From contig DATMMX010000047.1 in the NCBI GenBank assembly GCA_035569495.1, positions 75,937 to 139,936 of the forward strand: a stretch of DNA of 64,000 bases, given 5' to 3'. Position numbers and translations under genes: made by a program. The notes under the pieces were generated by a model. The model saw nothing but the letters and a program-made list of their open reading frames with translations, did no database searches and had not been told where the DNA came from. Each line of letters begins with the position of its first letter. The stretch's first letter is position 1. The DNA is from Candidatus Angelobacter sp. (GTDB lineage: Bacteria > Chloroflexota > Dormibacteria > Aeolococcales > Aeolococcaceae). This document shows, piece after piece, positions 8,697-37,259 of the stretch.

Positions 8697-8734
8697 CGCC
8701 TGATCCTACCCCATCCCCCTCCGGGCGACCGCCG

Positions 8735-9550
8735 CTATGTTCGGGTTACTTCCGAACCAGCCAGGGCGGGCGCGGCGAGGTCGCCGTGGGCGCCGAGGTG
8801 GAAGCGCAGGTGGTCGGCGAGGCGGCCCCTCCAGTAGCCCCAGTCGTGGCCGCCGGGCCGTTCGACGTAGCCGTGGGCGACACCGAGGCGGTCGAGGTGG
8901 GCGTGGAAGCCGCGGCTGGCGTCGAGCAGCGGGTCCTCGGTGCCGCAGTCGAGGGCGAGGCGCAGCCCGGTGCGGCGTGCCGGGTCGCTGACCAGCGAGG
9001 TGATGTCGTGCGCCGCCATCAGCGCGTCGTCGTCGCCCCACATGCGCCGGCGCGCGTCGGGGACGTACTGGAACAGTCGCTGCGGGTCGAAGAAGCCGCT
9101 GGTCGCCGAGGCGCTGTCGAAGGTGCCGGGGTTGCGCAAGGCCAGCAGCAGGGCGCCGTAGCCGCCCATCGACAGCCCGGCGACGTGGCGGTCGGACGGG
9201 ACGGGCAGCTCGGCGTCGATCCAGGGCAGCAGCTCGCCCACCAGGTACGTCTCCGCGGCGGTGGTGCCGTCGACCCAGTCGCAGTAACCCGAGCCCAGCT
9301 CGGCGCCGGTGTCGCCCGCCATCACCAGGCAGAACGGCGGCAGCTCGCCCGCGGCGACCAGGCGTGCCGCGGTACGGTCGGCGGCACCCTTCTCCCACCA
9401 TACGAATCCACCGGCGTCGCGGACGCCGTGCAGCAGCACCACCACGGGCAGGTCGCGACCTGGGTGGCCGGGCGGCATCCACGTCCAGTGCTCCAGCCGG
9501 CGGCGGTTGGCCAGGCTGAAGATGGTGTGGCCGGCCAGGCCCTCAGCCAT
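8735..9550 (-). CDS. Esterase-family protein (putative esterase / esterase D-like alpha/beta hydrolase)
   Basis: The first ATG after the upstream garbage frame gives MAEGLAGHTIF…. The nucleophile-elbow motif is GLSMGGYGALLLALRNP. The signature …WGDDDALMAAHDITS… is typical of the PF00756 putative-esterase family. The ORF-track upstream extension (to 9925) is a low-complexity R/P-rich read-through. Confidence 0.7.
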   Translation of the reverse strand: MAEGLAGHTIFSLANRRRLEHWTWMPPGHPGRDLPVVVLLHGVRDAGGFVWWEKGAADRTAARLVAAGELPPFCLVMAGDTGAELGSGYCDWVDGTTAAETYLVGELLPWIDAELPVPSDRHVAGLSMGGYGALLLALRNPGTFDSASATSGFFDPQRLFQYVPDARRRMWGDDDALMAAHDITSLVSDPARRTGLRLALDCGTEDPLLDASRGFHAHLDRLGVAHGYVERPGGHDWGYWRGRLADHLRFHLGAHGDLAAPALAGSEVTRT

Positions 9551-10307
9551 CGGCCGCCGCCTCGAAGCGCGCCATGCGGGCGCGGATGTGGGCGAGGTCG
9601 GCGTCGTGCAGCGAGCGCACCACGGCCATGCCCAGCTGCAGGTGCGGCGGCGCGCAGAGCATCGTGGCGATGGTCTCGGCGACGTCCTCGGGCCGCAGGA
9701 AGCCGTCCAGCGCCTCGCGCGGCAGCGGAGTTGCGGACGCGGACGACCAGAACGCGGTGTCCACCCCGCCGGGGAAGACGCCGTGCACGCGCACGCCGCA
9801 GAGGCGCCCCTCTTCGGCGATGGCCTCGGTGAAGCCGCGCACCGCGAACTTGGTTGCGCAGTAGACGGATTCACCGGGCTCGCCGCGCAGCCCGGCGGTC
9901 GACACCACGTTGACGATCTGCCCACCGCCGCCCACCGCCATGGCGCAGAAGGCTTCGCGACAGAGCAGCACGACGGCGCGGACGTTGACGTGCCACATCA
10001 GGTCGAGGTCGGCGGTGCTGATGTGTTCCACCGGCGCATGCCGGGCCAGTCCCGCGTTGTTGACCAGCACGTCGAGACGGCCGTGCCGCGCCAGCACGGC
10101 GGCGAGCGCCGCGGTCACCGCGCCGTCGTCACCGACGTCGACCACTACGCCCTCACCCCAGGATGCGTCGCGCACCGACGCCGCGACGTCGAAGCCGACC
10201 ACCTCGGCACCGCGCCGGGCCAGCGCTCTCGCGGTGGCGGCGCCGATGCCCGCGGCGGCGCCGGTGACCACGGCGACCTGGCCACGAAGCGGAAGGGGCG
10301 TCTCCAT
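9543..10307 (-). CDS. SDR-family NAD(P)-dependent oxidoreductase
   Basis: The Rossmann motif is VAVVTGAAAGIGAATARALARRGAEV. NNAG is present (VLVNNAG). The catalytic triad is S…YxxxK (YCATKFAVRGF). The stop overlaps the esterase start by 8 nt. Confidence 0.85.
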   Translation of the reverse strand: METPLPLRGQVAVVTGAAAGIGAATARALARRGAEVVGFDVAASVRDASWGEGVVVDVGDDGAVTAALAAVLARHGRLDVLVNNAGLARHAPVEHISTADLDLMWHVNVRAVVLLCREAFCAMAVGGGGQIVNVVSTAGLRGEPGESVYCATKFAVRGFTEAIAEEGRLCGVRVHGVFPGGVDTAFWSSASATPLPREALDGFLRPEDVAETIATMLCAPPHLQLGMAVVRSLHDADLAHIRARMARFEAAADG

Positions 10308-10329
10308 TGTGCGAGCGGGGGTGCGCGGC

Positions 10330-11160
10330 CTAGCCGGCGCGGTGGTAGAGGAGCGGGTTGATCTCGCTCGCCGCGAGGTCGCCGGGGTGCAGGCCGGGCA
10401 GCCACCGCCCCAGGTCGGCGCGGCGCTCGTCGCTGTCGGCGGGGCCGACGCGCGTGCCGTCGGCGAAGTAGATCACCGTCATCACCTCGCGCATGGCGCC
10501 GGTCTGGTTGCCCGGGGCGCGGTGCACCATCCAGCCGTCGTGGAAGGTCGCGTCGCCGGAGCGGAGGGGGCCGACGGCGGCGATCGGCGCGCCGGTCTCG
10601 GCCAGCTTCTGGGTGAAGTGGGCGTCCGAGTCGTCGGAGATGCGGGTGCCGCGCATGTCGGCGTTGCGGTGCGAGCCGGTGGCGAACTCCATGCCCGCCT
10701 CGACGTCGACCAGCGGCATCCACATGGTGACCGTGTGGTCGGTGTCGAGCGGCCAGTAGTAGCGGTCCTGGTGCCACGGGGTGTGGCCGCCGCCGGGCTC
10801 CTTGAACAGCGCCTGGTCGTGGTAGAGGCGGACGCCGTCGACGCCCATCAGGTCGGCGGCCATCCTGGCGAAGCGGTGGGCGAGCACGAAGCGGGCCACC
10901 GCCGGGTCGCGCAGCCAGATGTTCCAGACCTGCAGGAAGGCCCTGCCGTAGGTGTCGCGCTCCTCCAGGGGGCGGTGCTCCTGGTTGAGGCGGCGCACGG
11001 CGGCGCCGATGTGTTCGCGGTACGCGCTCAGCTCGGACGGGGTGCAGACGCCGGGCACGACCAGGTGGCCGTCGCGGCGGAAGGCGGCCACCTGGGCGGC
11101 ATCCAGGTGATGCTCGCCGGTCAGCGCGGGCAGGGTGGTGGCGTCGAGGGTGCTGCTCAC
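10330..11160 (-). CDS. Phytanoyl-CoA dioxygenase (PhyH) family Fe(II)/2-oxoglutarate oxygenase, paralog 1
   Basis: The HxD facial-triad context is HTPWHQDRYYWPLD, with a distal His (FHDGWMVHRAPGN). The start was chosen at in-frame GTG 11158-11160 (VSSTLD…) preceded by GGAAGGA. The ORF-track N-terminal extension (MGRYSKEYLLFLEG) uses AT-rich codons (tat, agt, tta, ttt) atypical for this genome, so I treat it as non-coding. Confidence 0.7.
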   Translation of the reverse strand: MSSTLDATTLPALTGEHHLDAAQVAAFRRDGHLVVPGVCTPSELSAYREHIGAAVRRLNQEHRPLEERDTYGRAFLQVWNIWLRDPAVARFVLAHRFARMAADLMGVDGVRLYHDQALFKEPGGGHTPWHQDRYYWPLDTDHTVTMWMPLVDVEAGMEFATGSHRNADMRGTRISDDSDAHFTQKLAETGAPIAAVGPLRSGDATFHDGWMVHRAPGNQTGAMREVMTVIYFADGTRVGPADSDERRADLGRWLPGLHPGDLAASEINPLLYHRAG

Positions 11161-11203
11161 TGGTCCTTCCAGAAAAAGTAAGTACTCCTTACTATATCTG
11201 CCC
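11161..11203. promoter_or_regulatory. 43-bp AT-rich divergent control region with perfect inverted repeat AGTAAG-N5-CTTACT
   Basis: The sequence is tggtccttccagaaaaAGTAAGtactcCTTACTatatctgccc. AGTAAG (11177-11182) and CTTACT (11188-11193) are perfect reverse complements. The repeat is embedded in the only AT-rich stretch between the divergently transcribed PhyH1 operon and GH31 gene. Candidate -10 elements are on both strands (TATATC on the plus strand 6 nt before ATG 11204; TATAGT on the minus strand). Confidence 0.5.
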
Positions 11204-14176
11204 ATGAGCTTTCCCGCAACCTGGCAACCTCCCTCCGGCAGCGCACCGCCCGGCGGCGGCGGCGCCCGCGGCGCGGTGCGCGTCACCGAGCTGTCCCCGA
11301 CCTGCCTGCGCGTCGAGCTGACCCCGGCCGGCAACGCGTTCACGGAGGCGGCGACGCTGATGGTCCCGGTGCGGCTGCAGGGACGGCCACTGGAGGCTGG
11401 CGAGGAGGGCGCGGCGCGCCGTGTGTGGCGCTCGTCCTCGGGCGAGGTGGAGGTGGCGGTCGAGATCGGCGGGGCGCGTCCGCCCGGCCCCGGCGACGTC
11501 GAGGTGCGCTGGCGGCACGGTGGCGAGGCCGGCAGCTTCCGCGCCGACGACTCCGACCCCACCAACTTCCGTGGCACGGTCCGCTCCCTCGACGTGGTCG
11601 GCGGCCACAACCTGCCGGCGCTGCCGCCGTCGCTGCTCTCCCGGCGCGGCGCGGTGGTCATCGAGGACCGCAGCGCGCTGCTCGACCCCGGCGACGGCTT
11701 CCCCCGCCCGCGCCCGGTCGAGAACGGCGTCCACGACCTCTACGTCTTCGCCTACGGCCGCGACCACCGCACCGCCCTGCGCGACTGGATCGCCCTGACC
11801 GGTCGTCCCGCGCTGATCCCCCGCTACTGCTTCGGCCTCTGGTGGTCGCGCTATCACCCGCACACGCAGAGCGAATTCCTGGCCATCGTCGACCGCTTCG
11901 CCGCCGAGGGCATGCCCCTCGACGTGCTGGTGGTGGACGTCGACTGGCACCTGCACGGCTGGGAGGGCTACGACTTCGACCCGCGCTGCTTCCCCGACCC
12001 ACCGGCGTTCTTCGCGGCGCTGCGCGAACGGGGCGTCCACACCACCTTCAACGTGCACCCGCGCGGCGCCATCCAGCCGGAGGACAGCCACTACGCCGAG
12101 TGCGTGCAGCGCCTTCCCCCGGGCCGCGTCGAGCCGGGCGCGGGCGTGGGGCTCGACCTGGCCCGCGCCGCGGAGGCGCAGATCGGTGCGGACATGCGCC
12201 GCCCGCTGGAGGACATGGGCGTCGCCTTCTGGTGGACCGACGGCAACCACGCGCACCTCGCCGGCCTCGACCCGCAGATGGCCACCAACCACGCCTTCCA
12301 CGTCGCCGCCGCGCAGCGCCGGGACCGCCGCCCCGTGGTGTTCTCGCGCTACGGCGGCCACGGGTCGCAGCGCCACGGCATCGGCTTCAGCGCCGACACC
12401 CAGAGCCACTGGGAAGTTCTGGCCTACCTTGTCGATTTCACGGCGACCGCCGCCGACGAGGCGTTCGGCACGTGGTCGCACGACGTGGGCGGCTTCTTCG
12501 GGCGGCGGCTCGACGGCGAGCTGCTGCGGCGCTGGATGCAGGCGGCTCTGCTCTGGCCGGTGCTGCGTCTCCACTCCGACACCTTCGGCGAGCGCCTTCC
12601 CTGGGAGTACGACGGCGACGTGCTGGAGGCGGCGCGCACGGTGGCGACGCTGCGCCGGCGGCTGGTGCCGGCGCTGTACAGCCTGGCCCACGAGCTGCAC
12701 CGCACCGGGATGGCGCCGTACCGGCCGATGCACCTCGCCTTCCCCGACTGGGACGGCGCCGCGGAGGTGCGCGGGCAGGCGATGCTCGGCGACGCGCTGC
12801 TGACCGCACCGGTGGTCGAGCCGGCCCGCGAGCCCGGCGGCGTCTCGGTGCGCCGGGTGGTGCTGCCGCCCGGGGAGTGGCACGAGCTCGACGCGTCGCT
12901 GCACGGCGGGCGGCGGCTGCGCGGACCGGCTGTGCTCGACCTCCGCGTCGGGCCGCAGGAGATGCCGCTCTACGGGCGCGCCGGGGGCATCGTGGTGGAG
13001 CAGGACGCGGCGCGGCGCGGGGTCGACGGGCCGCCCGATCCGCTGATGGTCACCGTGTTCCACGGCGCCGACGGGAGCTTCGTGCACTACGACGACGACG
13101 GGATCACCCGGGCGCACGAGCAGGGCGCGGTGGCACTGACGCCGATCGTCTACGACAACGCGGGCGCCACGGTGCGGCTGGGGCCGGTCGAGGGCGACCG
13201 GTCGATGCTGCCCGAGGTGCGGCGCGTGGTGGTGCGGCTGGTCGGCGTCGACGGCGCACCAGGGGGACCGCCCGGCGGTCGCGAAGTTTCTGCCAGTTTC
13301 AACTGGAACCTGGCCGGCGGCTCGATCTCGATCGGCTTCCACGTCGCCGGCGTCGATCCGGCGCGTGAGGCCCAGCTCGACATGGCGGCGCGCATCCGCG
13401 ACGCGGTGCGGGCCGCGGAGGAGCAGGGGGCGGTGATCCAGGCCCGGCTCGACGGTGCGACCACCCCCGCCGGCGCGGCCGAGCGCATCCACGGTGCCCC
13501 CGTCACCGAGCCCGCGCGCAGCGAGGCCCTCATGGCGCTCACACGCGCCGCCGTCCACGTCCTGGTCGAGCACCGCGACGGGCGGCTCACACCGGTGGTC
13601 ACCGTGGCCCAGCCGGACATTCCCGGATACATCGCGGTCGCCGGCCGGCCCGATGCCGTCGACCTCGCACCTGGGCGCAACCACGACCTGCGCCATCACT
13701 CCTGGCCAGTGTCGCTGCGCCTGCTGCACGACGGCAAAACCGTCGCCGAGGTGGGGCGCACCTTGACCCAGGACCTCACCTACCTGCGTCTGCTCAGCGT
13801 CCGCAACGCCGGCGGCGAGTGGCAGCACCTCGGTGCGACGCTTGCACCGCATCCCCTCGACGAGCCGCAGGCGCGGATCGACCTCGAGCCGTTCGCCGGC
13901 GCGCCCATCGAGGTCGCGGCCGCGCTGCGCAGCGAAAGAGATCAGGAGGTGGTGCTGCGCTGCACCGAGAAGCTGGGCCTGCAGCTGCAGGTCAACGGAG
14001 AGGAGGTGGCGCTGCACGCGGAGCAGCACCGCAATCATCGCGACCGCCGCGCGGCCACGGTGCACCTGCGCGCCGGCGACAACACGATCCTGCTGCGCTG
14101 CGACGCGCCGGCGTACGACCACTTCATGGCCGTCCAGGTGAGCGCGCCCCACGGCGTGGAGGTGGTGCGCCCCTAA
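11204..14176 (+). CDS. Glycoside hydrolase family 31 protein (alpha-glucosidase/alpha-xylosidase superfamily), 990 aa
   Basis: The N-terminal beta-sandwich is followed by a (beta/alpha)8 core with GH31-like blocks (GRPALIPRYCFGLWWSRY…, MPLDVLVVDVDWHLHGWEGYDFDP, GVAFWWTDGN). C-terminal beta-domains follow. No signal peptide. Possibly a leaderless mRNA (no SD before ATG). Confidence 0.7.
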   Translation: MSFPATWQPPSGSAPPGGGGARGAVRVTELSPTCLRVELTPAGNAFTEAATLMVPVRLQGRPLEAGEEGAARRVWRSSSGEVEVAVEIGGARPPGPGDVEVRWRHGGEAGSFRADDSDPTNFRGTVRSLDVVGGHNLPALPPSLLSRRGAVVIEDRSALLDPGDGFPRPRPVENGVHDLYVFAYGRDHRTALRDWIALTGRPALIPRYCFGLWWSRYHPHTQSEFLAIVDRFAAEGMPLDVLVVDVDWHLHGWEGYDFDPRCFPDPPAFFAALRERGVHTTFNVHPRGAIQPEDSHYAECVQRLPPGRVEPGAGVGLDLARAAEAQIGADMRRPLEDMGVAFWWTDGNHAHLAGLDPQMATNHAFHVAAAQRRDRRPVVFSRYGGHGSQRHGIGFSADTQSHWEVLAYLVDFTATAADEAFGTWSHDVGGFFGRRLDGELLRRWMQAALLWPVLRLHSDTFGERLPWEYDGDVLEAARTVATLRRRLVPALYSLAHELHRTGMAPYRPMHLAFPDWDGAAEVRGQAMLGDALLTAPVVEPAREPGGVSVRRVVLPPGEWHELDASLHGGRRLRGPAVLDLRVGPQEMPLYGRAGGIVVEQDAARRGVDGPPDPLMVTVFHGADGSFVHYDDDGITRAHEQGAVALTPIVYDNAGATVRLGPVEGDRSMLPEVRRVVVRLVGVDGAPGGPPGGREVSASFNWNLAGGSISIGFHVAGVDPAREAQLDMAARIRDAVRAAEEQGAVIQARLDGATTPAGAAERIHGAPVTEPARSEALMALTRAAVHVLVEHRDGRLTPVVTVAQPDIPGYIAVAGRPDAVDLAPGRNHDLRHHSWPVSLRLLHDGKTVAEVGRTLTQDLTYLRLLSVRNAGGEWQHLGATLAPHPLDEPQARIDLEPFAGAPIEVAAALRSERDQEVVLRCTEKLGLQLQVNGEEVALHAEQHRNHRDRRAATVHLRAGDNTILLRCDAPAYDHFMAVQVSAPHGVEVVRP

Positions 14177-15885
14177 GCGCCCGGCCGCACCGTCACCACG
14201 ACGAGCGACGGGGTCGCCGGCCCGGTGCACAGCGTCTGCCGCGCGGCGCGCAGGTCCTCGCGCCGGTCCGTCCCCGGAGTCGCGCCGGTGCCCGCGTTGA
14301 CGTCGTAGCGCGGGAACGACGAGCTGCACACGTCGACGCGCAGGCGGTGTCCCGCCTCGACGCGGTAGGCGATGTTCCAGCAGTGCACAGGGAATCGCTC
14401 CACCGCGCCCCGGCGCAGCCGCGGCGTGCCCGGTCCGAAGCGGTGGCGTCCGCGCACGTACCCGTCGGTGATGTTGACCGCGCGTCCCGCCGCGTCGACG
14501 TCGAGCAGGCGGACGCAGACGTCGGTGTCGGCGGCGTCGGTGGCCAGCCAGATCGTCGCCACCACCGGTCCGGCCAGCTCCAGCGGCTCCCCCAGCGGAG
14601 GACCGGTGAACGAGCAGACGTCGGGCCGCGCGCCACCGCTGATGCCGTCCTGGTCCATCGGCCCGGCGGGCAGTCCCAGCGCCGGGCCACCGCGCGTTGG
14701 CACGGGATCCGAAGGGTCGTGCACCCACCACACCGCGCCGTCGTCATCGGGCCCGGCCACACCCAGCGACCCCGAGGACCGATCCGGCCCCGCCTGCAAA
14801 TACAGTGGCAGGGAGCGCACGCCCGGAGGCGGCCACGACGCCGCCTCGTCCCAGCGGTCCGCGCCGACGACGTAGTACGTCACCGGCGCCAGGTCGCGGG
14901 CGATGCCGCCGTCGCCGGCCAGCCACGACTGCGTCCACTCCACCAGCAGCGCGTCGTCGTACCTGCCGGCGTTGGGCGCGAGCGCGGTCAGCCCCGCGGG
15001 CGCCGGCGCGTGGCTGGTCGGCGCCATCACCAGCCGGTGCTGGGCGCCACCCGCCGCACCGCCCCGCTGCAACGCCGCGAACATGCTCACCTGGTCCTGC
15101 GCCCACAGGTCGTACCAGCCGCCGACGATCAGCACCGGCACGTCGAACGCGTCCTGCGCCGGCGGCCCCGGATCGCTCAGCCAGGTGTGGGTGAATGGCG
15201 CGGTGAAGAGTTCCTGCCAGGCGCGGCCAAAAAGCGGCGCCGCGGCGTACTCGGCGCGGTCGATCAGCGGCAGCCGTGACAGCGCGTGGTGCGCGCGCGC
15301 CGCCGCCACGTCGAGGCAGGGCAACCCGTCCGCCCCCACGCGCACCACCTGTTCGAACTCCAGCGCCAGCGCGTACAGCGCGCCGCGCGCGGCGTCGTGG
15401 GTGTCCGGCGCCTCCGCCGCCTGCCGCGGCATCCAGTGCGCCGCCAGGGACAGGCAGAGCGCGCCACCCTCGTGCATGGTCAGCGGCCGCCACCAGGCCG
15501 GGCACCGCGCAGGCGCGATGGCGCGCAGCCCCGCGGGCCGCGACCGCGCCGCGCGAAGCTGGGTCATCCCGGCGTAGGAGATGCCGTGCATGCCCACCGT
15601 CCCGTCGCACCACGGCTGCGCCGCCGCCCAGGCCACCGCCGCCGCGCCGTCGGCGCCGTCGCTCAACCCGAAGTCGAACACGCCGGATGACCCGCCCCGC
15701 CCGCGCACGTCCTGGGTCACCACCGCGACGGTGGCCGGGTTGCGGCCAAGGTTGACGTCAACCATCTCGAAGTCGACGCCGTAGGGGGTGCGGAACAGCG
15801 ACGCCGGCCACGGTCCCGCGCCGGACGGCGGCAGCCGCACCACCGTGTTCAGCCCGTCCACCCGCGCCCCGGCAGCGAGGCTCAC
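14173..15885 (-). CDS. CocE/NonD-family (S15, X-Pro dipeptidyl-peptidase-like) alpha/beta hydrolase
   Basis: Start taken at GTG whose GTGA overlaps the stop of the upstream lipoprotein gene. The N-terminal region is typical of the family (…VRLPPSGAGPWPASLFRTPYG…). The nucleophile region is AQPWCDGTVGMHGISYAGMTQ (GxSYxG). A C-terminal beta-sandwich domain is present. The first ~145 aa of the ORF-track frame (R/G-rich) are rejected. Confidence 0.7.
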   Translation of the reverse strand: MSLAAGARVDGLNTVVRLPPSGAGPWPASLFRTPYGVDFEMVDVNLGRNPATVAVVTQDVRGRGGSSGVFDFGLSDGADGAAAVAWAAAQPWCDGTVGMHGISYAGMTQLRAARSRPAGLRAIAPARCPAWWRPLTMHEGGALCLSLAAHWMPRQAAEAPDTHDAARGALYALALEFEQVVRVGADGLPCLDVAAARAHHALSRLPLIDRAEYAAAPLFGRAWQELFTAPFTHTWLSDPGPPAQDAFDVPVLIVGGWYDLWAQDQVSMFAALQRGGAAGGAQHRLVMAPTSHAPAPAGLTALAPNAGRYDDALLVEWTQSWLAGDGGIARDLAPVTYYVVGADRWDEAASWPPPGVRSLPLYLQAGPDRSSGSLGVAGPDDDGAVWWVHDPSDPVPTRGGPALGLPAGPMDQDGISGGARPDVCSFTGPPLGEPLELAGPVVATIWLATDAADTDVCVRLLDVDAAGRAVNITDGYVRGRHRFGPGTPRLRRGAVERFPVHCWNIAYRVEAGHRLRVDVCSSSFPRYDVNAGTGATPGTDRREDLRAARQTLCTGPATPSLVVVTVRPGA

Positions 15886-16328
15886 GTGCACCCCGCGGTG
15901 GAGCAGGTGCGCAGCAGGTCGAGCGTGACATGGCCGTCGCCCCCGCACCAGTCCGGCGCGGATGGGCCCGGCGATACGCAGGGGATCGCCGTCGGGGTCG
16001 GACCGCCGGGCGCCTTCCAGATGTCGCAGTGCAGCGAGCGTCCCGCCTCGGCGGCGACGCATTGCCAGTCGGTGTACGACCTGCCCCCGTCGCTGCTGAT
16101 GACGAACTCGCCGGTGCTGGTCGGGTCGGGGAGCCGGGTGTCGCGCCCGTCCACCTGGACGGCGCCGGTGTTGACCGAGAGCGTCACCGGGGTGCCGCTG
16201 GGCAGCGTCCCCGAGTACGTCCCCGCCGCCAGCGAGGCCGCACCGGCCTGGGTGGAGCCGCACGCGCCGAGCGCGCCGCAGCAGGCGAGCACCGCCAGCG
16301 CCGCCGCCACGCCGCGCACGCGCCACAT
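15882..16328 (-). CDS. Small Cys-rich lipoprotein (hypothetical, 148 aa)
   Basis: The signal/lipobox is MWRVRGVAAALAVLACCGALGACGS. The mature part has 8 Cys (…WQCVAAEAGRSLHCDIW…CVSPGPSAPDWCGG…LRTCSTAGCT). The ATG shares one base with the upstream stop (TGATG), and the stop overlaps the downstream GTG start (GTGA). The ORF-track upstream extension is wrong-frame garbage. Confidence 0.55.
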   Translation of the reverse strand: MWRVRGVAAALAVLACCGALGACGSTQAGAASLAAGTYSGTLPSGTPVTLSVNTGAVQVDGRDTRLPDPTSTGEFVISSDGGRSYTDWQCVAAEAGRSLHCDIWKAPGGPTPTAIPCVSPGPSAPDWCGGDGHVTLDLLRTCSTAGCT

Positions 16329-17440
16329 CACGGCAGCGGCGCCGGAGTGACTGAGGACAGCGTCGCCGACCCGTCGAGCGCGAAGGGGGCGCCGGCGAGG
16401 GTGCTCTGGGGCTGCGCCGCCGCCGTCCACTGCACGATCAGCCCGCCCAGCCCGGTGGCCACGGCATAGGTGACCTTTTCGGTGAGGTTGGTGGTCGCCG
16501 GCGCCGTGCCCGACGCGGTGCTCACCTGGGTGGCCACCAGGGTGATGGTGGCCTGCACCTGCCAGGCGTCCACCGGGGTGCCGCAGGCGTTGACCCGGAT
16601 GCGGCCGAGGTCGGTGGCGTCGATGGTCATGGCGGTGCCGGTCACCGGATCGGTCTGCGAGTCCTTCCAGGTGCCGGTGGTGCCGGGCGTCCCCGGGTTG
16701 TTGGGGTCGGGCTGGTACTGCGACGCCTGCGCCGCGGGAGTGCTGAGCAGGGTCAGCGCCGCCGCCGGCTTGAAGACGACCGCCCCACCCGGCACCGGGA
16801 TCGACAGCCCCGCCAGCGCGAAGCGCGAGGTTGGCGAGACCAGCGGGGTGCTCGGCTGCGCGCTGGAGTTGGTGGCGGCGTACTCGCCGGCGGAGTCCGG
16901 GAAACCGAGCACGGCGCCGGCCTCGGTGAAGCCGAAGCTGCCCTGGGCGGGCTGGGTGACGGCGCTCACCGTGCCGGTCGTCGCGGCGGCGAGGGGTGCG
17001 GCGGGGGCGCCACCGCGCGTCACGTTGCCCGTCTGCAGGAACGCCCAGCGGCCGGCGGTGGCGGCGTCGCTCACCTCGGTGGTGGCCGCGGCGGCCGAGG
17101 GCTTGAGCGGATCGAGCGGCGGGCACGCCAGGTCGTCGGGCGGGGGCGGCGGCAGCACGAACCCGGTCCCGTGCGGAATGGGCAATGCTGCCGGCACCGC
17201 GAGCTGAGGCACGCTGTACACGGGCAGCGCCTCGGCCAGTGGGGCGGGTGCGGGCGCTCCGGGGCGGGGCGCCTCCGGCAGCGGCCGGGTGCCCACGGTG
17301 ATGCTGAGCGGCACGTTCTTCATGCCGAGCTGCACCTGCACGGAGGGGCCGCAGCCGGTGGCCAGCAGAGGGAGCGCGGCGGCCAGGGGCAGCGCCAGGG
17401 CGCGGCCGTCGGCGCGAAAGGCGGCGGCGAGGCGGATCAT
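16328..17440 (-). CDS. Lipoprotein, Pro/Ala/Thr-rich (hypothetical, ~370 aa)
   Basis: Internal ATG (MIRLAAAFRADGRALALPLAAALPLLATGCGPS; lipobox LATGC) overlaps the stop of the upstream gene (ATGA). It has a proline-rich linker (PLPEAPRPGAPAPAPL…PPPPPDD) and then a T/A/G-rich beta-rich region. No recognisable catalytic motif. Confidence 0.5.
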   Translation of the reverse strand: MIRLAAAFRADGRALALPLAAALPLLATGCGPSVQVQLGMKNVPLSITVGTRPLPEAPRPGAPAPAPLAEALPVYSVPQLAVPAALPIPHGTGFVLPPPPPDDLACPPLDPLKPSAAAATTEVSDAATAGRWAFLQTGNVTRGGAPAAPLAAATTGTVSAVTQPAQGSFGFTEAGAVLGFPDSAGEYAATNSSAQPSTPLVSPTSRFALAGLSIPVPGGAVVFKPAAALTLLSTPAAQASQYQPDPNNPGTPGTTGTWKDSQTDPVTGTAMTIDATDLGRIRVNACGTPVDAWQVQATITLVATQVSTASGTAPATTNLTEKVTYAVATGLGGLIVQWTAAAQPQSTLAGAPFALDGSATLSSVTPAPLP

Positions 17441-17946
17441 CGTCCCTCCTGGAATCGGACCAGTGCGCCCAGGAAGGCCTGGGGGTCCTTGAGCTGGTTG
17501 CTGACGGTGAGCACCTCGAAGACGCCCGGATTGCGGTCGGGGAACCAGACGAAGAGGTGCACGTCGGGCCGGACCTGGTCGGCGACCCACTGGCCGGCCA
17601 CCCGGTAGTAGCGGTAGGAGCCGCTGCCGAGCTGCTTGCGGATGTCGTGCTGGACGTCGACGTCGGTGGTGTCCAGGTCGGCGCGCAGCGTGGCCACCTG
17701 GAGCGCGGCGTAGACGGCGCCCTGGGCGCGCAGGGTGTACAGCCGTCCCTGGTCGACCTGGGTGCGGGGCACGTCGAAGCCGGAGCGGGCGTCGGTCTCC
17801 TCGTGCACCGTGTAGCCGTCGACCGCCGCCGGGAGGATGCGCGAGGGGAGCTGCGGCGTGGTGGCGGCCACCGCGCTGCCGCAGGCGGCCAGCGCGGCGC
17901 CGGCGAGCAGGGCGAGCGGGGCGAACAGCAGGCGCGGCGCCCTCAC
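17437..17946 (-). CDS. Lipoprotein (hypothetical, ~169 aa)
   Basis: GTG start (VRAPRLLFAPLALLAGAALAACGS; lipobox LAAC) overlaps the TGA of the transglutaminase gene (GTGA). The mature part is …YTVHEETDARSGFDVPRTQVDQGRLYTLRAQGAVYAALQVATLRADLDTTDVDVQHDIRKQLGSGSYRYYRVAGQWVADQVRPDVHLFVWFPDRNPGVFEVLTVSNQLKDPQAFLGALVRFQEGR, with normal composition and no known domain. Confidence 0.5.
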   Translation of the reverse strand: MRAPRLLFAPLALLAGAALAACGSAVAATTPQLPSRILPAAVDGYTVHEETDARSGFDVPRTQVDQGRLYTLRAQGAVYAALQVATLRADLDTTDVDVQHDIRKQLGSGSYRYYRVAGQWVADQVRPDVHLFVWFPDRNPGVFEVLTVSNQLKDPQAFLGALVRFQEGR

Positions 17947-20213
17947 GCGAAGCGCCTCCGCAGCACCCGCGCCCGCCGTCGCGAGCGAGCCGCGCCCGCC
18001 ACCGGAGCGGGCCACGGGTTGGGCAGGCTGCGATCGTACGGCTCGCGCAGCGACGCCCGCGACGACAGGGCGAGCACCCGGGTCAGCCAGGGCTGCCCCC
18101 TGGAGAGCCGTCGCCGCAGCGAGGCACCCATCTCCCGCGCCGCCGCCACGTCCTCGGCCTGCAGGTCACGGGCCAGGTCGCCCCAGAGCGCGCGGGTGAC
18201 CAGCCAGGCGTACTCCTCGTGCTCCTCGTCGGGGCTGAGCCGGTCGAGGAACTCGAGGGGGGTGGACCAGGGGTCGCCGGCGCGCAGGTCGCCGGCCAGG
18301 TCGCGGAACTCCGCGTACTCGACGGCGATCTCGGCTGCGGCCCCGAACGCCCGGGCGTGGCGGCGCCGCCTGCGCCCGCGCCAGAGCTTGAGCGGCCAGG
18401 GGAAGAACATCACCAGCACGGCGGCGGCGACGCCGATGGGGGCGAGCACGGCCAGCCACCAGCGCACCACCTGGTAGAGCAGCAGCGCCGAGCTGGCGTC
18501 GGTGGGCACGTAGAGCTGCAGCGACACCTCCTCGGCGGGGTGGATCAGCGGGCTGTGGTTGGCCGGGTTGGCGTCGAGCGGGGAGACGGCGTGGGCCGGG
18601 ACGCCGATCACCGGCACCCAGCCGTAGCCCTCGAAGTACACCTCGGCCCAGTTGGCGCCGTGCCGCGGACGCAGCTCGACGCCGCCGCCCGGGACGGGGT
18701 CGCCACCGTAGAAGCCGTAGCCGAGCCGGGCGGGCAGCCCCGCCCAGCGGGCCAGCAGCACCTGGGCCGCGGCGATCTCGTAGGGCGACGCCCTGCCGCC
18801 GGCGAGCATGGCCACCACCCGCGACGGCGGGGTCGGCCCGGGCACGCCGGGACCGGCGGCGACGACGTGGTCGTAGAGCGCCTGGCGCAACGCCTGGAGA
18901 CGGTCCCACGGGTTGCGCGGCGCGTTGTCGAGGAGGTGGCGCACCTCGTCCGGGGCGGCGGGGATCCAGGTGTCGTCAGGGTTGACGCCGCGCGGGCTGC
19001 CTGCGGCCGACAGGTCCTGCGCGCTGGGCGGCTTCTCGCCGCTGACCGTGTAGGTGAAGGCGCCGGTCGGCGCGGCGGGCAGCATCAGCGCGCCGCTGCG
19101 CGGGTCGTACTGGGCGCGGCCGCCCTGCAGGTTGACGTGGGTCGCGCCCGCCGGGGCGGGCAGCACGCGCTGTTCGGGGTCGACCACCGTGACGGTGTAG
19201 TCCTGGGTCGCGCCCTTCAGGGTGGTCAGCGGCTGGTCACCGGCGACGTTGACCAGCCGGGAGGGGTCGTAGGGCGGCAGCAGGAAGTCGCTGCCGTCGT
19301 AGCTGTCCAGCTCGCCGAGGCGCCAGGGGCCGGAGAGGTCGCCGGGACCCCGGACCCTGGCGATGGCCCGGTCCTTGACCTGGTCGGGCGGGACCACCTG
19401 GGGCTTCTGCGGGGGGAGGGCGCGGGTGGCCACCGCGGCGGGGAAGAGGAAGCTCGAATGGTTGAGCACGACCAGGGCGACCAGGGCGAGGGCGAGGGCG
19501 CCGGCCCCGCGCAGGGAGCGGCGCAGCTCGAAGCCGCGACTGCCGCCGCTGCCGCCCAGCTCGGCGGCGTAGAGCACCATCAGTCCGGCGACCACCAGCA
19601 CCAGCGAGACGCCGGCGCCGAGCACGCCGCCGTCCGGGGGCTGGAGCAGGGCGCCGGCGAGCACCACGGGGAGGGGCAGGGCGAGGGCAAGCCGGGGCCG
19701 GGACGTGTTGAGCACCAGCGTCGCGGTGGCGGCGGCGAGCAGGATGCAGAGAGCGACCAGCACGAACCGCCAGCCGGCATCGAAGGGCACGGGGGGCTGG
19801 AGCAGGCCGCCGCCGCTGACCGCGGACTGCACCGCTTCGAGGGGGGAGACGCGGCTGTCGGTGGCGACGCTGACCAGGGAGGCGGCGACGAAGGCGGCCG
19901 GAAGCAGGGCGAGGCCGGCGACGCCGGGGCGGCGGGAGCGGGCGACGGCGGCGGCCGCGGCGACGCCGAGGGCGGCGCAGGCCAGGGCCAGGGGGCGGGC
20001 CTGCGGCGAGTCGAAGACGCCGCCGAGCATCCAGGCGGCGGCGGCGCTGCTGAGCAGGGCGGCCAGGCAGGCGCGGCGCACGGAGAGTGTGGGCTCTGCG
20101 TCGTCGCCGGGCGTGGCCACCGGGACCGGAAAAGCGGCGGGCACCCCCGCAGCGGCTTGGTGGTCGGGCCCGGCAACGGGAACGGAGGTTTTCGCGGGCG
20201 GCTCGACGATCAT
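17943..20213 (-). CDS. Transglutaminase-like (TgpA-type) membrane protein with C-terminal DUF4129-like region
   Basis: ATG (MIVEPP…) overlaps the DUF58 stop (ATGA). Six N-terminal TM helices are followed by the transglutaminase core (…ASPYEIAAAQVLLARWAGLPARLGYGFYGGD…HGANWAEVYFEGYGWVPV; the ASPYE Cys-position is degenerate here). A further TM helix and an acidic/Arg-rich tail follow. Confidence 0.65.
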   Translation of the reverse strand: MIVEPPAKTSVPVAGPDHQAAAGVPAAFPVPVATPGDDAEPTLSVRRACLAALLSSAAAAWMLGGVFDSPQARPLALACAALGVAAAAAVARSRRPGVAGLALLPAAFVAASLVSVATDSRVSPLEAVQSAVSGGGLLQPPVPFDAGWRFVLVALCILLAAATATLVLNTSRPRLALALPLPVVLAGALLQPPDGGVLGAGVSLVLVVAGLMVLYAAELGGSGGSRGFELRRSLRGAGALALALVALVVLNHSSFLFPAAVATRALPPQKPQVVPPDQVKDRAIARVRGPGDLSGPWRLGELDSYDGSDFLLPPYDPSRLVNVAGDQPLTTLKGATQDYTVTVVDPEQRVLPAPAGATHVNLQGGRAQYDPRSGALMLPAAPTGAFTYTVSGEKPPSAQDLSAAGSPRGVNPDDTWIPAAPDEVRHLLDNAPRNPWDRLQALRQALYDHVVAAGPGVPGPTPPSRVVAMLAGGRASPYEIAAAQVLLARWAGLPARLGYGFYGGDPVPGGGVELRPRHGANWAEVYFEGYGWVPVIGVPAHAVSPLDANPANHSPLIHPAEEVSLQLYVPTDASSALLLYQVVRWWLAVLAPIGVAAAVLVMFFPWPLKLWRGRRRRRHARAFGAAAEIAVEYAEFRDLAGDLRAGDPWSTPLEFLDRLSPDEEHEEYAWLVTRALWGDLARDLQAEDVAAAREMGASLRRRLSRGQPWLTRVLALSSRASLREPYDRSLPNPWPAPVAGAARSRRRARVLRRRFA

Positions 20214-21481
20214 CGGCGGATGCCCGCGCCGCCGCCGAACACCGCCGCCAGCGGCGTGCGCGGCCGCAGCTGCACCACCTGGCACCCCAGCGCCGCCGCA
20301 TGGGCCAGCGCGGTCGGATCGCTCTCCTCCCACACCAGCACCACCAGCACCACGTAGGCGCCCTGGTCGACGAGCAGCTTCAGCCGGGTCGCGGCGCGGT
20401 CGTCCACGTGCGGGGTCACCACCACGTGGTGCACGTCGCGGCGCACATTGCGCACCACCCGCTCGACCACGGTCTGCAGCGGCTCGGCCTCGCGCTGCAC
20501 CCGGGCCATGGCATCGAGCAGGTTGGTCTGGTCGCGCACCCCGCGGAGCGAGGGCGCCAGCGTCGCGCCGTTGGTCTCGACACTGACCGCGAAGCCGTCC
20601 CTGAGGTACCGCAGGCCCAGCGACGCCGCCGTCCGCACCGCCGCCTCGAAGGTGTCGCTGGGGTCGCCCGGGCTGTGGTGGCGGGAATCGGTGTCGAGGA
20701 CGATGGCGACGCGGTCGGTGATGCCCTGCTCGAACTCGCGGACCATCATCCGGCCGGTGCGGGCCACGGCGCGCCAGACCACGCGGCGCAGGTCGTCACC
20801 GGGCGTGTAGCGGCGCATGCCGTAGAACTCGAAGCCGCTCGGCCATGGCTTGGAGACCGGTGGCCGCACCGGCGGGTCCTCCCACTGGCGGGTGAGCGGC
20901 GTGTCCTGCACGCCCTCGGTCTGCGGGTGGACGAGGATCTCGCCGGCCTCGGCGACCACCACCTCGCGCCGGGTGAAGCCGAACGGGTCGCTCCAGATCG
21001 CGGTCAGCGGGCCCACCTCGTAGACGCCGCGGAGCTGCGGGGTCATCGCGTAGCGGTAGGTGGCGTCGCGTCCGGGGGCGACGGACTCGAGCTGGATGCG
21101 GCGGCTGCGGCCGAGGTGGGGATGCAGCTTCTCCTCCAGCACCAGCCCGGTGACCCGGCGGCGCGAGCTGAAGGTCAGCTCGACGTCGACGAGCTGGCCC
21201 TGGCGGACGCGCGTGGGCAGCTCGCTGCGCACGGCGTCGAGCGCCTGGCGCTGCCGGCCCAGCCACCAGGCCAGGGCGAGCACCACCAGTCCGCCGTAGA
21301 CCAGCAGGTAGAGGGTGCGGCTGCCCAGCAGCCGGGCGAGCAGCCAGCCGGCCACGGCGCCGCCGACGAGCATGGCGCCGCCCGCGGTCAGGCCGGTGCG
21401 CGCCAGCACGCGGGCGAGCGTGGGCACCTCGAAGCGCCAGGAGGGGCGCCACGGCGGGCGGCGGCTGCGGATGGCCTGCAT
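20210..21481 (-). CDS. DUF58-domain protein (VWA-like, MoxR partner)
   Basis: Two N-terminal TM helices are present. The core …GFEFYGMRRYTPGDDLRRVVWRAVARTGRMMVREFEQGITDRVAIVLDTDS… is characteristic of DUF58 proteins encoded next to MoxR ATPases. There are 7 nt between the MoxR stop and this ATG. Confidence 0.75.
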   Translation of the reverse strand: MQAIRSRRPPWRPSWRFEVPTLARVLARTGLTAGGAMLVGGAVAGWLLARLLGSRTLYLLVYGGLVVLALAWWLGRQRQALDAVRSELPTRVRQGQLVDVELTFSSRRRVTGLVLEEKLHPHLGRSRRIQLESVAPGRDATYRYAMTPQLRGVYEVGPLTAIWSDPFGFTRREVVVAEAGEILVHPQTEGVQDTPLTRQWEDPPVRPPVSKPWPSGFEFYGMRRYTPGDDLRRVVWRAVARTGRMMVREFEQGITDRVAIVLDTDSRHHSPGDPSDTFEAAVRTAASLGLRYLRDGFAVSVETNGATLAPSLRGVRDQTNLLDAMARVQREAEPLQTVVERVVRNVRRDVHHVVVTPHVDDRAATRLKLLVDQGAYVVLVVLVWEESDPTALAHAAALGCQVVQLRPRTPLAAVFGGGAGIRR

Positions 21482-21487
21482 GGGTGC

Positions 21488-22516
21488 CTAGCCGAGCGCC
21501 GCGAGGGCCTCGGTGCCGCGGACCAGCCGCTGGGGGGGCGCCGAGCTGCTGACCAGCGGCGGCTTGACCCGGCCGACCACGCGCTCCAGCACCTTGTCGA
21601 CACTCTCGCCGCGGAGCTGCGCCTCGGGGCTGAGGATGAGGCGGTGGCTCATCACCGGGTGGAGCAGCGCTTTGACGTCGTCCGGATACACGTCCTCCCG
21701 CCCCTGGCTGGCGGCGAGGACGCGCGCCGCCCAGAGCAGCGACAGCGAGGCGCGCGGGCTGGCCCCGAGGGTGAGCGCGGCGTCGTGGCGGGTGGCCTGG
21801 ACGATGTCGATGGCGTAGCGCAGCACCGGCTGGGCGACGGTCACCCCGCTGGCCCACTCGATCATCGCCACCACCTCGGGCAGGTCGACCATCGGCTGCA
21901 GCCGGTCGATGGCGGGCTGGCGGCCGTTGGCCATCAGCACCTCCTCCTCCGCCTCCGCCGACGGGTAGCCGATCGAGAGCTTGAAGAGGAAGCGGTCGAG
22001 CTGCGCCTCGGGGAGCGGGAAGGTCCCGGCCAGCTCGATGGGGTTCTGCGTGGCCAGCACCAGGAACGGCCGCGGCAGCGCGTGGGTGGTGCCCTCGACG
22101 GTGACGGTGCGCTCGGCCATGGCTTCGAGCAGCGCACTCTGCGTCTTCGGCGTCGCGCGGTTGACCTCGTCGGCGAGCAGGATGTTGGCGAACACCGGGC
22201 CGGGGCGGAAGGTGAAGGTCATCCGCGCCTGGTCGAGGATGCTGCTGCCGGTGATGTCGCCGGGCAGCATGTCGGGGGTGCACTGGATGCGGCCCACGTC
22301 GGCGTTGACGGTGCGCGCGATCGAGCGGGCGAGCATCGACTTGCCGACGCCGGGCGCGTCCTCGAGGAGCAGGTGTCCCTCGGCGAACATCGCCACCAGG
22401 GCCATGTGGACGACGTCGCCCTTGCCCTTGATCACCCGTTCGACGTTGGCCTGGATCTCCTCGAAGCGCCGGGTGAAGCGCTGCGCATCCATGGGCGGCA
22501 GGGCGGGAAGTGGCAT
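21488..22516 (-). CDS. MoxR-family AAA+ ATPase
   Basis: ATG with GGAGGAG upstream. Walker A is LLEDAPGVGKSMLARSIA and Walker B is FANILLADEVNRATPKTQSALLEAMAE (sensor/arginine finger context). The conserved MoxR C-terminal helical domain is present. The ORF-track extension to 24940 is read-through in another frame of the upstream gene. Confidence 0.9.
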   Translation of the reverse strand: MPLPALPPMDAQRFTRRFEEIQANVERVIKGKGDVVHMALVAMFAEGHLLLEDAPGVGKSMLARSIARTVNADVGRIQCTPDMLPGDITGSSILDQARMTFTFRPGPVFANILLADEVNRATPKTQSALLEAMAERTVTVEGTTHALPRPFLVLATQNPIELAGTFPLPEAQLDRFLFKLSIGYPSAEAEEEVLMANGRQPAIDRLQPMVDLPEVVAMIEWASGVTVAQPVLRYAIDIVQATRHDAALTLGASPRASLSLLWAARVLAASQGREDVYPDDVKALLHPVMSHRLILSPEAQLRGESVDKVLERVVGRVKPPLVSSSAPPQRLVRGTEALAALG

Positions 22517-22542
22517 GGGGATCTCTTTCTCCTCCAACGGAA

Positions 22543-25592
<3,050 letters not shown>

Positions 25593-25596
<4 letters not shown>

Positions 25597-27842: not shown

Positions 27843-27998
27843 TTCCCTGGCACGTGCGCTGGTCCTCCATCCGCCGCGCTTCTCTTCCCCGGCCCGCCTT
27901 CGGCCACGCTCGGCCGCGCCCCAACCACGCTATTCTCCGCGCCCGTATATGATTTCGTCAATATTACTGCCTAATTGTGCGGCGACAAGGAGACGGAC
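27843..27998. promoter_or_regulatory. Divergent intergenic control region containing conserved motif ATTGACGAAAT (minus-strand orientation) and GGAG RBS of the GH31-GH13 gene
   Basis: An AT-rich island ccgtatatGATTTCGTCAATattactgcctaattg lies in otherwise GC-rich DNA. The reverse complement ATTGACGAAATCATATAC contains a -35-like TTGACG for the minus-strand Liv/MoxR operon. The same 11-mer recurs at ~51662-51672. Confidence 0.45.
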
Positions 27999-37165: not shown

Positions 37166-37259
37166 GCTCTTTCGGCCTCCAACCAGGATGTGCTACGAAT
37201 TAGGAAGAGATATTACCAAATTGCCTCGGCGGAGGCCCGCCGTGTCCAGGGAGGCCACC
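37166..37259. promoter_or_regulatory. Divergent intergenic region (SBP/GH35 operon versus GH31 gene) with AT-rich core
   Basis: gatgtgctacgaattaggaagagatattaccaaattgcc is the only AT-rich segment for kilobases. RBSs are on both flanks (GGAGG for the minus gene, GGGAGG for plus ATG 37260). Confidence 0.4.

Follow-up and report, generated by a model that had tools for sequence, protein, structure and literature searches.

The window analysed here comprises 64,000 nucleotides of contig DATMMX010000047.1 (positions 75,937 to 139,936 of the forward strand), from an assembly labelled Candidatus Angelobacter sp. (GCA_035569495.1). On its minus strand three consecutive genes, LipoA, LipoB and LipoC, encode predicted lipoproteins and lie between a gene for a TgpA-like membrane protein and one for a CocE/NonD serine hydrolase. 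The comparisons described below favour, on balance, the view that the three proteins are non-enzymatic extracytoplasmic partner subunits of a module built from a pseudo-TgpA, a MoxR-type ATPase and an ATP-binding cassette (ABC) transporter. The lipoprotein genes, the parts of their products and the TgpA-like gene are as follows.

17943-20213, minus strand: TgpA-like membrane protein, 756 residues from ATG 20213; its start overlaps the DUF58 stop (ATGA)
17437-17946, minus strand: LipoA, 169 residues, GTG start
17946-17884, minus strand: LipoA signal peptide, lipobox LAAC, Cys22 codon at 17883-17881
16328-17440, minus strand: LipoB, 370 residues, ATG start
17440-17354, minus strand: LipoB signal peptide, lipobox LATGC, Cys30 codon at 17353-17351
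17350-17126, minus strand: Pro-rich tether of LipoB, residues 31-105, which includes PPPPP
17125-16331, minus strand: all-beta barrel of LipoB, residues 106-370, with invariant Cys106 and Cys286
15882-16331, minus strand: LipoC, 149 residues from GTG 16331, or 148 from ATG 16328
16331-16263, minus strand: LipoC signal peptide, lipobox LGAC, Cys24 codon at 16262-16260

Because of its high GC content (about 70-77%, and 75% in the DNA around the trio), the window contains many long chance open reading frames. The GC content at third codon positions (GC3) is 0.96 for LipoA, 0.94 for LipoB and 0.95 for LipoC, compared with 0.93-0.97 for the flanking MoxR, DUF58, TgpA and CocE genes, and the frame of highest GC3 changes at the limits of the three genes, at the 150-nt resolution of the scan. 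The GC3 level and the frame switches argue that LipoA, LipoB and LipoC are real coding regions rather than chance frames. Adjacent genes overlap by 1-4 nt at all four boundaries: TgpA and LipoA share the start/stop overlap CGC-GTGA; LipoA and LipoB meet at GGAGGGACG-ATGA, with GGAGG ahead of the overlap; LipoB and LipoC overlap in GTGATG; and LipoC runs into CocE at ACGTGAGC, a GTGA overlap. Thus the first-pass annotation, which described three consecutive lipoprotein genes whose starts overlap the preceding stops, agrees with the reading frames, the GC3 values, the frame switches, the lipoboxes and all four junctions. Its further statement that the products are stoichiometrically co-expressed goes too far, since start/stop overlaps cannot show stoichiometry. 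Co-transcription of the three genes is what we propose.

The signal peptides were assessed with the PROSITE rule PS51257, which specifies a Lys or Arg within the first seven residues, a hydrophobic region (h-region) without charge, and [LIVMFWSTAG]2-[LIVMFYSTAGCQ]-[AGS]-C with the Cys at position 15-35. The rule is satisfied by LipoA (Cys22), LipoB (Cys30) and LipoC (Cys24), and by close homologs of each (21/24 for A, 18/22 for B and 7/9 for C). In LipoC, Cys17 likewise satisfies it, and alignment of the homologs places the lipobox at LGAC, not VLAC. The lipobox Cys is invariant across the family alignments of A, B and C. Both the rule and this invariance bear out the canonical lipoprotein signal peptides with LAAC, LATGC and LGAC that had been described earlier. 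By prediction, the three products are probably lipid-anchored proteins of the outer face of the cytoplasmic membrane.

Scans of LipoA, LipoB and LipoC against Pfam, NCBIfam and PADLOC yielded no match, and PDB sequence-profile searches with narrow and broad alignments of each gave none either; neither LpqB nor any named DUF family, the outcome that the earlier annotation had set against novelty, emerged from Pfam, NCBIfam or the PDB profiles. When 45 B and 51 diverse A homologs were scanned member by member, Pfam gave no consistent family, and no family was matched by more than one of the A proteins. The proposal that the lipoproteins have no recognisable domain is therefore correct for the curated libraries but does not extend to the structural model of LipoA. 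The mature domain, about 147 residues, is modelled with the Mog1p/PsbP-like alpha/beta fold and superposes on Mog1, PsbP, DcrB and LpqN. Listed fold-match scores are 8.2 for TM1622, 7.9 for TP0453, 7.8 for Mog1, 7.5 for both Tsi3 and LpqN, 7.4 for TiME, 7.1 for the PknH sensor, 6.9 for PsbP and 6.5 for DcrB. Sequence identity to these matches is 4-12%, a likeness at the level of the fold only. LipoA has no match at E up to 1 to the PsbP, DcrB-DUF1795 or LpqN families of Pfam, and the 51 A homologs scanned likewise gave no match to the families of these proteins. The fold occurs in adaptor, immunity and lipid-binding lipoproteins.

A word-indexed search of 5.8 billion proteins found homologs of A in 24 clusters, of B in 22 and of C in 9. 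The tiny families that these numbers suggested proved, for A and B, to be an artefact of sensitivity once exhaustive profile and context searches had been made. An exhaustive HMMER search with a profile of mature A recovered 209 clusters (50% identity level, E <= 1e-3), and LipoA is not the orphan it was taken for. Among the best 150 of these 209 clusters, 104 are represented by short proteins, with a lipobox in at least 74 and the remainder mostly fragments, and 37 by proteins of more than 600 residues in which the A domain is C-terminal. Transglut_core was found in all 11 of the longer A-domain proteins that were scanned (533-1397 residues), together with TgpA_N in several. Locus L005, a distant one, was reached through a B homolog of 28% identity; its TgpA gene runs past the cytoplasmic tail into an extra transmembrane (TM) helix and an A-like C-terminal domain (28% identity to LipoA, E 6e-9). 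Metagenome loci give the same picture: of 56 in which A lies close to TgpA, 40 have the two in one frame. A fusion was called when the two share a frame with no stop between them; a test for an open upstream frame was dropped as unreliable in high-GC DNA. One fusion, P0124 (1397 residues), has an extra C-terminal DUF4434 domain beyond A.

The TgpA-like protein of the window is predicted to begin with about seven TM helices, followed by an ectodomain of transglutaminase type at about residues 252-576 of the 756, then by one more TM helix and a cytoplasmic tail rich in Arg. The predicted topology of the fusions continues this plan: about seven TM helices, the ectodomain, a TM helix, the Arg-rich tail, a further TM helix and then A. 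Since an Arg-rich stretch and a TM helix precede it, A lies on the outer side, the same side as the transglutaminase domain. In many relatives, on these predicted topologies, the LipoA domain forms the extracytoplasmic C-terminal end of TgpA itself.

In 25 of 36 fusions examined (P0060, P0062 and 23 others), the helix at the TgpA/A junction is a full lipoprotein signal peptide: its n-region is rich in Arg and leads through an h-region to a lipobox Cys. The domain match was misplaced in three of the remaining 11. The tail of the window TgpA ends in ...SRRRARVLRRRFA*, and LipoA begins with (V/M)RAPRLLFAPLALLAGAALAAC, so that the arrangement at 17943-17946 looks like a split form of the fusion sequence. 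It is possible, though we put it forward tentatively, that the locus represents an undescribed nine-gene envelope machine in which a fused A is lipidated and cut from the polytopic TgpA at its internal lipobox by Lgt and LspA. Such a machine of uncultured high-GC soil bacteria may comprise an ABC importer with a major facilitator superfamily (MFS) fusion, MoxR, DUF58, the pseudo-transglutaminase and two or three lipoproteins. To our knowledge, processing at an internal lipobox of a multi-pass membrane protein is very unusual. An internal lipoprotein signal peptide, if true, would be a new route to lipoprotein production.

The gene order of the window is widely retained. Permease, MFS-ABC-ABC protein, MoxR, DUF58, TgpA, A, B, C and CocE/NonD follow one another in eight related loci (L001-L004, L006-L008), the 4-nt overlaps are kept in related loci with called genes, and the order persists even where identity to the window proteins has dropped to 44% for A, 31% for B and 27% for C. 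The named relatives from the word-indexed search are metagenome-assembled genomes (MAGs) of Candidatus Dormibacterota, as is the GTDB locus L006; L007 is labelled 'uncultured Actinomycetes'. Two proteins with 100% identity to LipoB and LipoC (P0025 and P0047) are labelled 'Candidatus Angelobacter sp.' (Acidobacteriota) at NCBI, and the labelling of these MAGs looks inconsistent. Judged by its named relatives, the window probably comes from a Dormibacterota MAG. More distant contexts of the A family (L009-L013) always contain TgpA, either fused to A or followed by A, and then B and C homologs; the B homologs there have 310-395 residues and score 76-116 bits against the B profile.

A metagenome scan with the TgpA alignment, using motifs of this TgpA subfamily, recruited 209 relatives, of which the best 80 loci were analysed. 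Counts refer to the 54 loci with at least 2.2 kb downstream of TgpA, the 32 with at least 8.5 kb upstream, and the 31 long loci. B is present in 53/54, A in 51/54 and both in 50/54, with A before B in 39 and B before A in 11. B is thus no orphan in the loci sampled. Upstream of TgpA, MoxR and DUF58 are each found in 32/32 loci, and the MFS-ABC-ABC fusion and a LivHM-type permease each in 30/32. In four loci (L076, L081, L090 and L091) transporter genes lie between B and A, which argues that the transporter and the rest of the module form one unit. Synteny down to about 25% identity, the A-TgpA fusions and the joint occurrence of A and B tie the lipoproteins functionally to TgpA.

What follows B is variable: a C-type lipoprotein, the small lipoprotein C2, an SBP_bac_5 lipoprotein, a Peripla_BP_6-like protein or a permease. 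Most often it is a binding protein located outside the cytoplasm. A C-type lipoprotein in this position is found in the Dormibacterota-like clade and in a few other loci. The Peripla_BP_6-like protein is encoded in 22 of the 31 long loci. SBP_bac_5 lipoproteins, of peptide/oligosaccharide type, stand straight after B in L005 (2450-4084) and in L022, L025, L033-L036, L042, L044, L066, L078, L086 and L088. Where genes had been called in these loci, the adjacent transporter is of Liv type, and an Opp/Dpp-type permease was not noticed, a point that was not checked systematically.

The CocE/NonD gene, by comparison, is present in 3 of the 31 long loci. The earlier annotation had coupled the lipoproteins to both TgpA and CocE/NonD; start/stop overlaps do connect the trio with both genes, but the link to the hydrolase is clade-specific. 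The hydrolase itself belongs to the CocE/NonD (S15) family.

14173-15885, minus strand: CocE/NonD serine hydrolase, 570 residues; TIGR00976 (E 3.3e-89), Peptidase_S15 and PepX_C

Its nucleophile motif, GxSYxG, reads GISYAG at residue 101. A scan of the protein for a signal peptide, a TM segment and a lipobox found none; it is therefore probably cytoplasmic, across the membrane from the lipoproteins. The sequence comparisons suggest that it is probably a clade-specific last gene rather than a lipoprotein partner. One Dormibacterota-like lineage (L001, 13936-14442) has, after CocE/NonD, a fourth small lipoprotein that contains Cys (168 residues, no Pfam match). A tblastn search of the window at E <= 1e-5 gave no match to it; there a GH31 gene converges on CocE instead.

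The TgpA-like protein matches Transglut_core (PF01841, E 9e-11) and TgpA_N (PF11992, E 6e-10). Reading of the upstream sequence places its start at ATG 20213, not at 20333, where the longest open frame (796 residues) begins. Alignment through the TgpA profile to the periplasmic domain of Pseudomonas aeruginosa TgpA (6g49) identifies three segments that correspond to the catalytic motifs.

18774-18791, minus strand: ASPYEI, which replaces the catalytic G-F-C-A-H-Y
18648-18662, minus strand: HGANW, the degenerate His motif
18603-18623, minus strand: GWVPVIG, in place of GW..D

GFCAHYA of 6g49 aligns with AS-PYEIA, so that the catalytic Cys becomes Pro; DAHAW aligns with HGANW, where His becomes Ala; and GWLSV(D) aligns with GWVPV(I), where Asp becomes Ile/Gly. 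The 796-residue frame has just four Cys, at positions 12, 89, 119 and 196, and the ectodomain contains none. The pattern [STN]P[YF]E...GA.W.E...GWVP..G.P was found in 34 of 37 fusions that had been recruited independently through the A-domain profile; for the remaining three the motif alignment was not usable. That the substitute motif is conserved shows selection on the domain for a role other than thiol catalysis. On these alignments the protein is predicted to be catalytically inactive.

Loss of the triad bears directly on the suggestion, made when the trio was first described, that the lipoproteins are substrates or inhibitors of the transglutaminase or hydrolase. Substrates would here include cross-linking targets, and TgpA would be an active transglutaminase/cysteine protease. 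The translational coupling of their genes to those of TgpA and CocE/NonD would be expected on such a reading. The reading falls, for the transglutaminase, because the catalytic Cys, His and Asp are gone, the ectodomain is devoid of Cys and the loss is common to the independently recruited fusions; of the roles first proposed, scaffold or partner alone survives. For the hydrolase, the want of an export signal and its presence in so few of the long loci count against it. We regard this explanation as very improbable.

The cytoplasmic tail of TgpA is strongly conserved, and a pseudo-enzyme ectodomain is typical of receptors. Both features would suit an extracytoplasmic sensor, in which A, B and C bind an envelope or nutrient signal that the pseudo-TgpA relays to MoxR and DUF58, switching the ABC transporter; the lipoproteins could then be likened to RseB/MucB-type and PknH-sensor-type domains. 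However, the cluster lacks any conserved kinase, sigma/anti-sigma pair or transcription factor, and the fold resemblances are generic. A sensory role seems quite unlikely on this evidence.

LipoB consists of two very different parts. The Pro-rich linker noted earlier is present at residues 31-105; this tether of 73-75 residues has low AlphaFold confidence and is modelled as disordered. The beta domain that follows, of about 260 residues, has pLDDT values mostly above 90 except in one low-confidence loop. Its best structural matches, to the YmcC-like fold and to LmcA, are weak (Z <= 8.9, Foldseek E no better than 3e-3, TM-score <= 0.38), and the barrel thus has no close solved relative. Forty-five B homologs of 19-33% identity all keep Cys106 and Cys286, which fits a predicted Cys106-Cys286 disulfide in an oxidising, extracytoplasmic setting. 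Within the tether, residues 31-52 (17287-17350; GPSVQVQLGMKNVPLSITVG) are semi-conserved in very distant B homologs, despite the low AlphaFold confidence, and this segment may be a docking strand. The conserved N-terminal segment of B has the pattern GP.V...G.K.VP..I..G. A scan of GTDB genomes with B patterns found two loci; the patterns are too clade-specific for the scan to be informative on absence from cultured taxa. A plasmid collection yielded no tblastn match to a distant B or to a fusion protein.

Mature LipoC has 126 residues, counting the lipidated Cys24. Of its nine Cys, C17 and C18 lie in the h-region of the signal peptide and C24 in the lipobox, which leaves C91, C102, C118, C129, C143 and C148; eight mature Cys and four disulfides had been counted at first, and the figures must be revised to six further Cys and three disulfides at most. 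In the alignment, the six mature Cys and the lipobox are kept in Dormibacterota-like homologs, and elsewhere only the first Cys pair is. Homologs of the latter kind, with 106-115 residues, occur in L010-L013 and score 58.5-22.6 bits against the C profile. The position of LipoC is held in other lineages by C2, a lipoprotein of 126-141 residues with the motif WDC...C[DK][WY] and no Pfam match, which was found at the following loci.

L026, 13849-14274: C2 lipoprotein
L047, 13866-14252: C2 lipoprotein
L037, L046, L049, L056, L083 and L087: C2 lipoprotein

A relationship between C2 and LipoC was considered and rejected, as hhalign pairs only their signal peptides. Comparison of the loci leads us to propose that LipoC is a clade-variable third subunit. 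Pfam has no model for any of the four lipoprotein types A, B, C and C2, nor has NCBIfam for the first three; they are new families to curate.

The genes upstream of TgpA, in reverse order of their position in the window, are these.

25593-27842, minus strand: fused LivH/LivM-type ABC permease; two BPD_transp_2 domains (Pfam)
22543-25596, minus strand: MFS_1 and two LivG/LivF-type ABC ATPase domains in one polypeptide, an unusual fusion; MFS_1, two ABC_tran and BCA_ABC_TP_C (Pfam)
21488-22516, minus strand: MoxR-type AAA+ ATPase, 342 residues; Pfam AAA_3 (E 8e-61) and AAA_lid_2
20210-21481, minus strand: DUF58 protein, 423 residues; Pfam DUF58 (E 1.6e-12), N-terminal TM hairpin at residues 31-49 and 51-69

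The transcription unit probably begins with the permease gene. The sole sigma-70-like site within 13800-28200 lies upstream of it, at 27961-27932 on the minus strand, and the arrangement is compatible with a single predicted transcript of about 13.7 kb from permease through CocE. MoxR starts at ATG 22516, 26 nt past the stop of the ABC gene and with GGAGGAG ahead. A search of the window and of the leader region for Rfam riboswitches and other RNAs returned no match.

In the MoxR/DUF58 pair an AAA_3/AAA_lid_2 ATPase is followed directly by DUF58, the arrangement that marks MRP-type MoxR operons. The ATPase also has a faint match to the bpMoxR family of Pfam, and MoxR-vWA ternary systems have been linked to biological conflict (PMC12067865). 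A system of that type, in which anti-phage defence or conflict would rely on the lipoproteins to sense or act at the cell surface, is nevertheless highly improbable here. PADLOC gives weak, generic AAA matches on MoxR (E no better than 1e-3) and none for DUF58, TgpA, A, B, C or CocE; the surroundings are transporter and glycoside-hydrolase genes rather than a defence island, and no effector domain is present.

The regions 7464-14176 and 27975-39482, which surround the module, encode three GH31 enzymes, GH13, GH35/42, an ROK regulator, two PhyH dioxygenases, a short-chain dehydrogenase (SDR), a PF00756 esterase and a solute-binding protein.

35444-37165, minus strand: TM-anchored Peripla_BP_6-like solute-binding protein (Pfam)

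This binding protein is the probable receptor of the Liv-type transporter. It is 36-40% identical to proteins encoded after C in L010 and L012 and to proteins in L011 and L013, and homologs lie directly after B or C in other lineages. Loci L011 and L013 likewise carry a set of GH31, GH13, SDR, esterase, binding protein and GH35/42 genes after the module; such a set is missing from most of the 80 loci, so that the glycoside link is a lead and not a rule. A second Liv-type gene, at 43130-45847 on the minus strand, encodes a 905-residue protein in which BPD_transp_2 permease domains are fused to an ABC ATPase domain.

It is possible to draw these elements together in a working model. The module would consist of the Liv-type ABC permease, the MFS-ABC-ABC protein, MoxR, DUF58, the pseudo-TgpA, A, B and a variable third binding protein. 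LipoA, with its adaptor-type Mog1/PsbP fold, would dock onto the pseudo-transglutaminase ectodomain. LipoB, whose barrel is predicted to be stapled by a disulfide and sits on about 75 residues of Pro-rich tether, may bind a ligand or partner away from the membrane. LipoC would be the Dormibacterota-clade version of the variable third binder, whose position elsewhere is taken by the SBP_bac_5 lipoprotein, the Peripla_BP_6-like protein or an unrelated small lipoprotein. From the cytoplasm, MoxR and DUF58 would assemble or remodel the complex through the conserved TgpA tail, and the resulting platform may serve or gate the adjacent ABC transporter. Of the specific hand-off to the transporter we are rather doubtful.

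Several observations weigh against the model. The link to transport, as drawn from these loci, is purely genomic, and the structural matches of LipoB are too weak to say anything on its ligand. The [ST]P[YF]E motif could support chemistry that does not depend on Cys, so that "inactive" is a prediction. The co-occurrence counts, finally, hold for the TgpA subfamily whose motifs recruited the loci, not for all TgpAs.

The same genes might instead serve as carriers of an envelope lipid or glycolipid. By analogy with the mycobacterial LprG-Rv1410 and LpqN-MmpL pairs, the LpqN-like A and the LmcA/LprG/LolA-like B could shuttle a hydrophobic component that the MFS-ABC protein exports or flips, with TgpA and MoxR as the scaffold. 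Fusion of an MFS domain to ABC ATPases and the resemblances to LpqN, LmcA and LprG point in this direction, as does the conservation of the PF00756 esterase and SDR genes nearby. But the structural matches are at the fold level only, with 5-13% identity and low Z or TM-scores, and the transporter, which solute-binding proteins accompany, belongs to the Liv type of importer, so that uptake fits better than export. Moreover, the cluster contains no lipid-biosynthesis genes. We consider lipid carriage rather unlikely and retain the view that the lipoproteins are partner subunits of the pseudo-TgpA module.

MoxR-DUF58-TgpA operons are widespread, and TgpA is essential in Pseudomonas. We know of no established function for these operons, even in Pseudomonas. 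The P. aeruginosa protein (PA2873; 6g49/6g4h) shares with the window protein the TgpA_N polytopic N-terminus, the extracytoplasmic Transglut_core domain and the C-terminal TM helix, and its gene presumably adjoins MoxR and DUF58 genes as well. The window subfamily differs in having Pro, Ala and Ile/Gly at the positions of Cys, His and Asp, in the fusion of TgpA to A or its succession by A together with B, and in the Liv-type ABC transporter with an MFS fusion upstream.

Other known systems resemble parts of the module. The PFNA cluster of bifidobacteria, pkb2-fn3-aaa-atp-duf58-tgm, likewise has consecutive genes for a MoxR-type ATPase, DUF58 and a membrane transglutaminase-like protein, together with an extracytoplasmic binding protein (PMC8430577). 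Its tgm product has been described as a presumed cysteine protease, and it differs from the window in having a Ser/Thr kinase and an FN3 protein upstream, with neither the lipoprotein trio nor an ABC transporter (PMC8430577). In MRP MoxR operons, such as mycobacterial moxR1-DUF58-vWA, MoxR is followed by DUF58 and then by a membrane protein with an extracytoplasmic domain (PMC12067865); in the window the third gene encodes a pseudo-transglutaminase instead of a vWA protein, and the lipoproteins and ABC transporter are additional.

The individual lipoproteins also have structural counterparts. A LipoA-like fold is seen in LpqN (6e5d), DcrB (6e8a), TiME (7cu8), the PknH sensor (4esq) and the type VI secretion system immunity proteins Tsi3/Tli, none of which is known to be associated with or fused to TgpA. 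LipoB resembles YmcC-like lipoproteins (2in5, 3fzx, 4fvs) and LmcA (7n3v)/LprG in being a membrane-anchored, outer-face antiparallel beta-barrel; it differs in its larger barrel (about 260 residues), the conserved Cys106-Cys286 pair and the long Pro-rich tether, and no sequence relationship to them is apparent. A literature search found no paper in which lipoproteins, an ABC transporter or a degenerate catalytic triad are connected with MoxR-DUF58-TgpA operons. MoxR-DUF58-transglutaminase triads themselves were already known, and the window module is a distinct MoxR/DUF58/TgpA subfamily with new obligatory components.

In this subfamily transglutaminase chemistry has been lost, whereas the architecture, MoxR and DUF58 and the extracytoplasmic partners have been kept, which suggests that its core job is scaffolding or mechanical coupling across the membrane rather than catalysis. 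Relatives of the module are found in many metagenome contigs. For the MoxR-DUF58-TgpA system, A, B and the linked ABC transporter are named partners that can be tested directly, and for the uncultured Dormibacterota the cluster offers a first handle on their cell-surface proteins.

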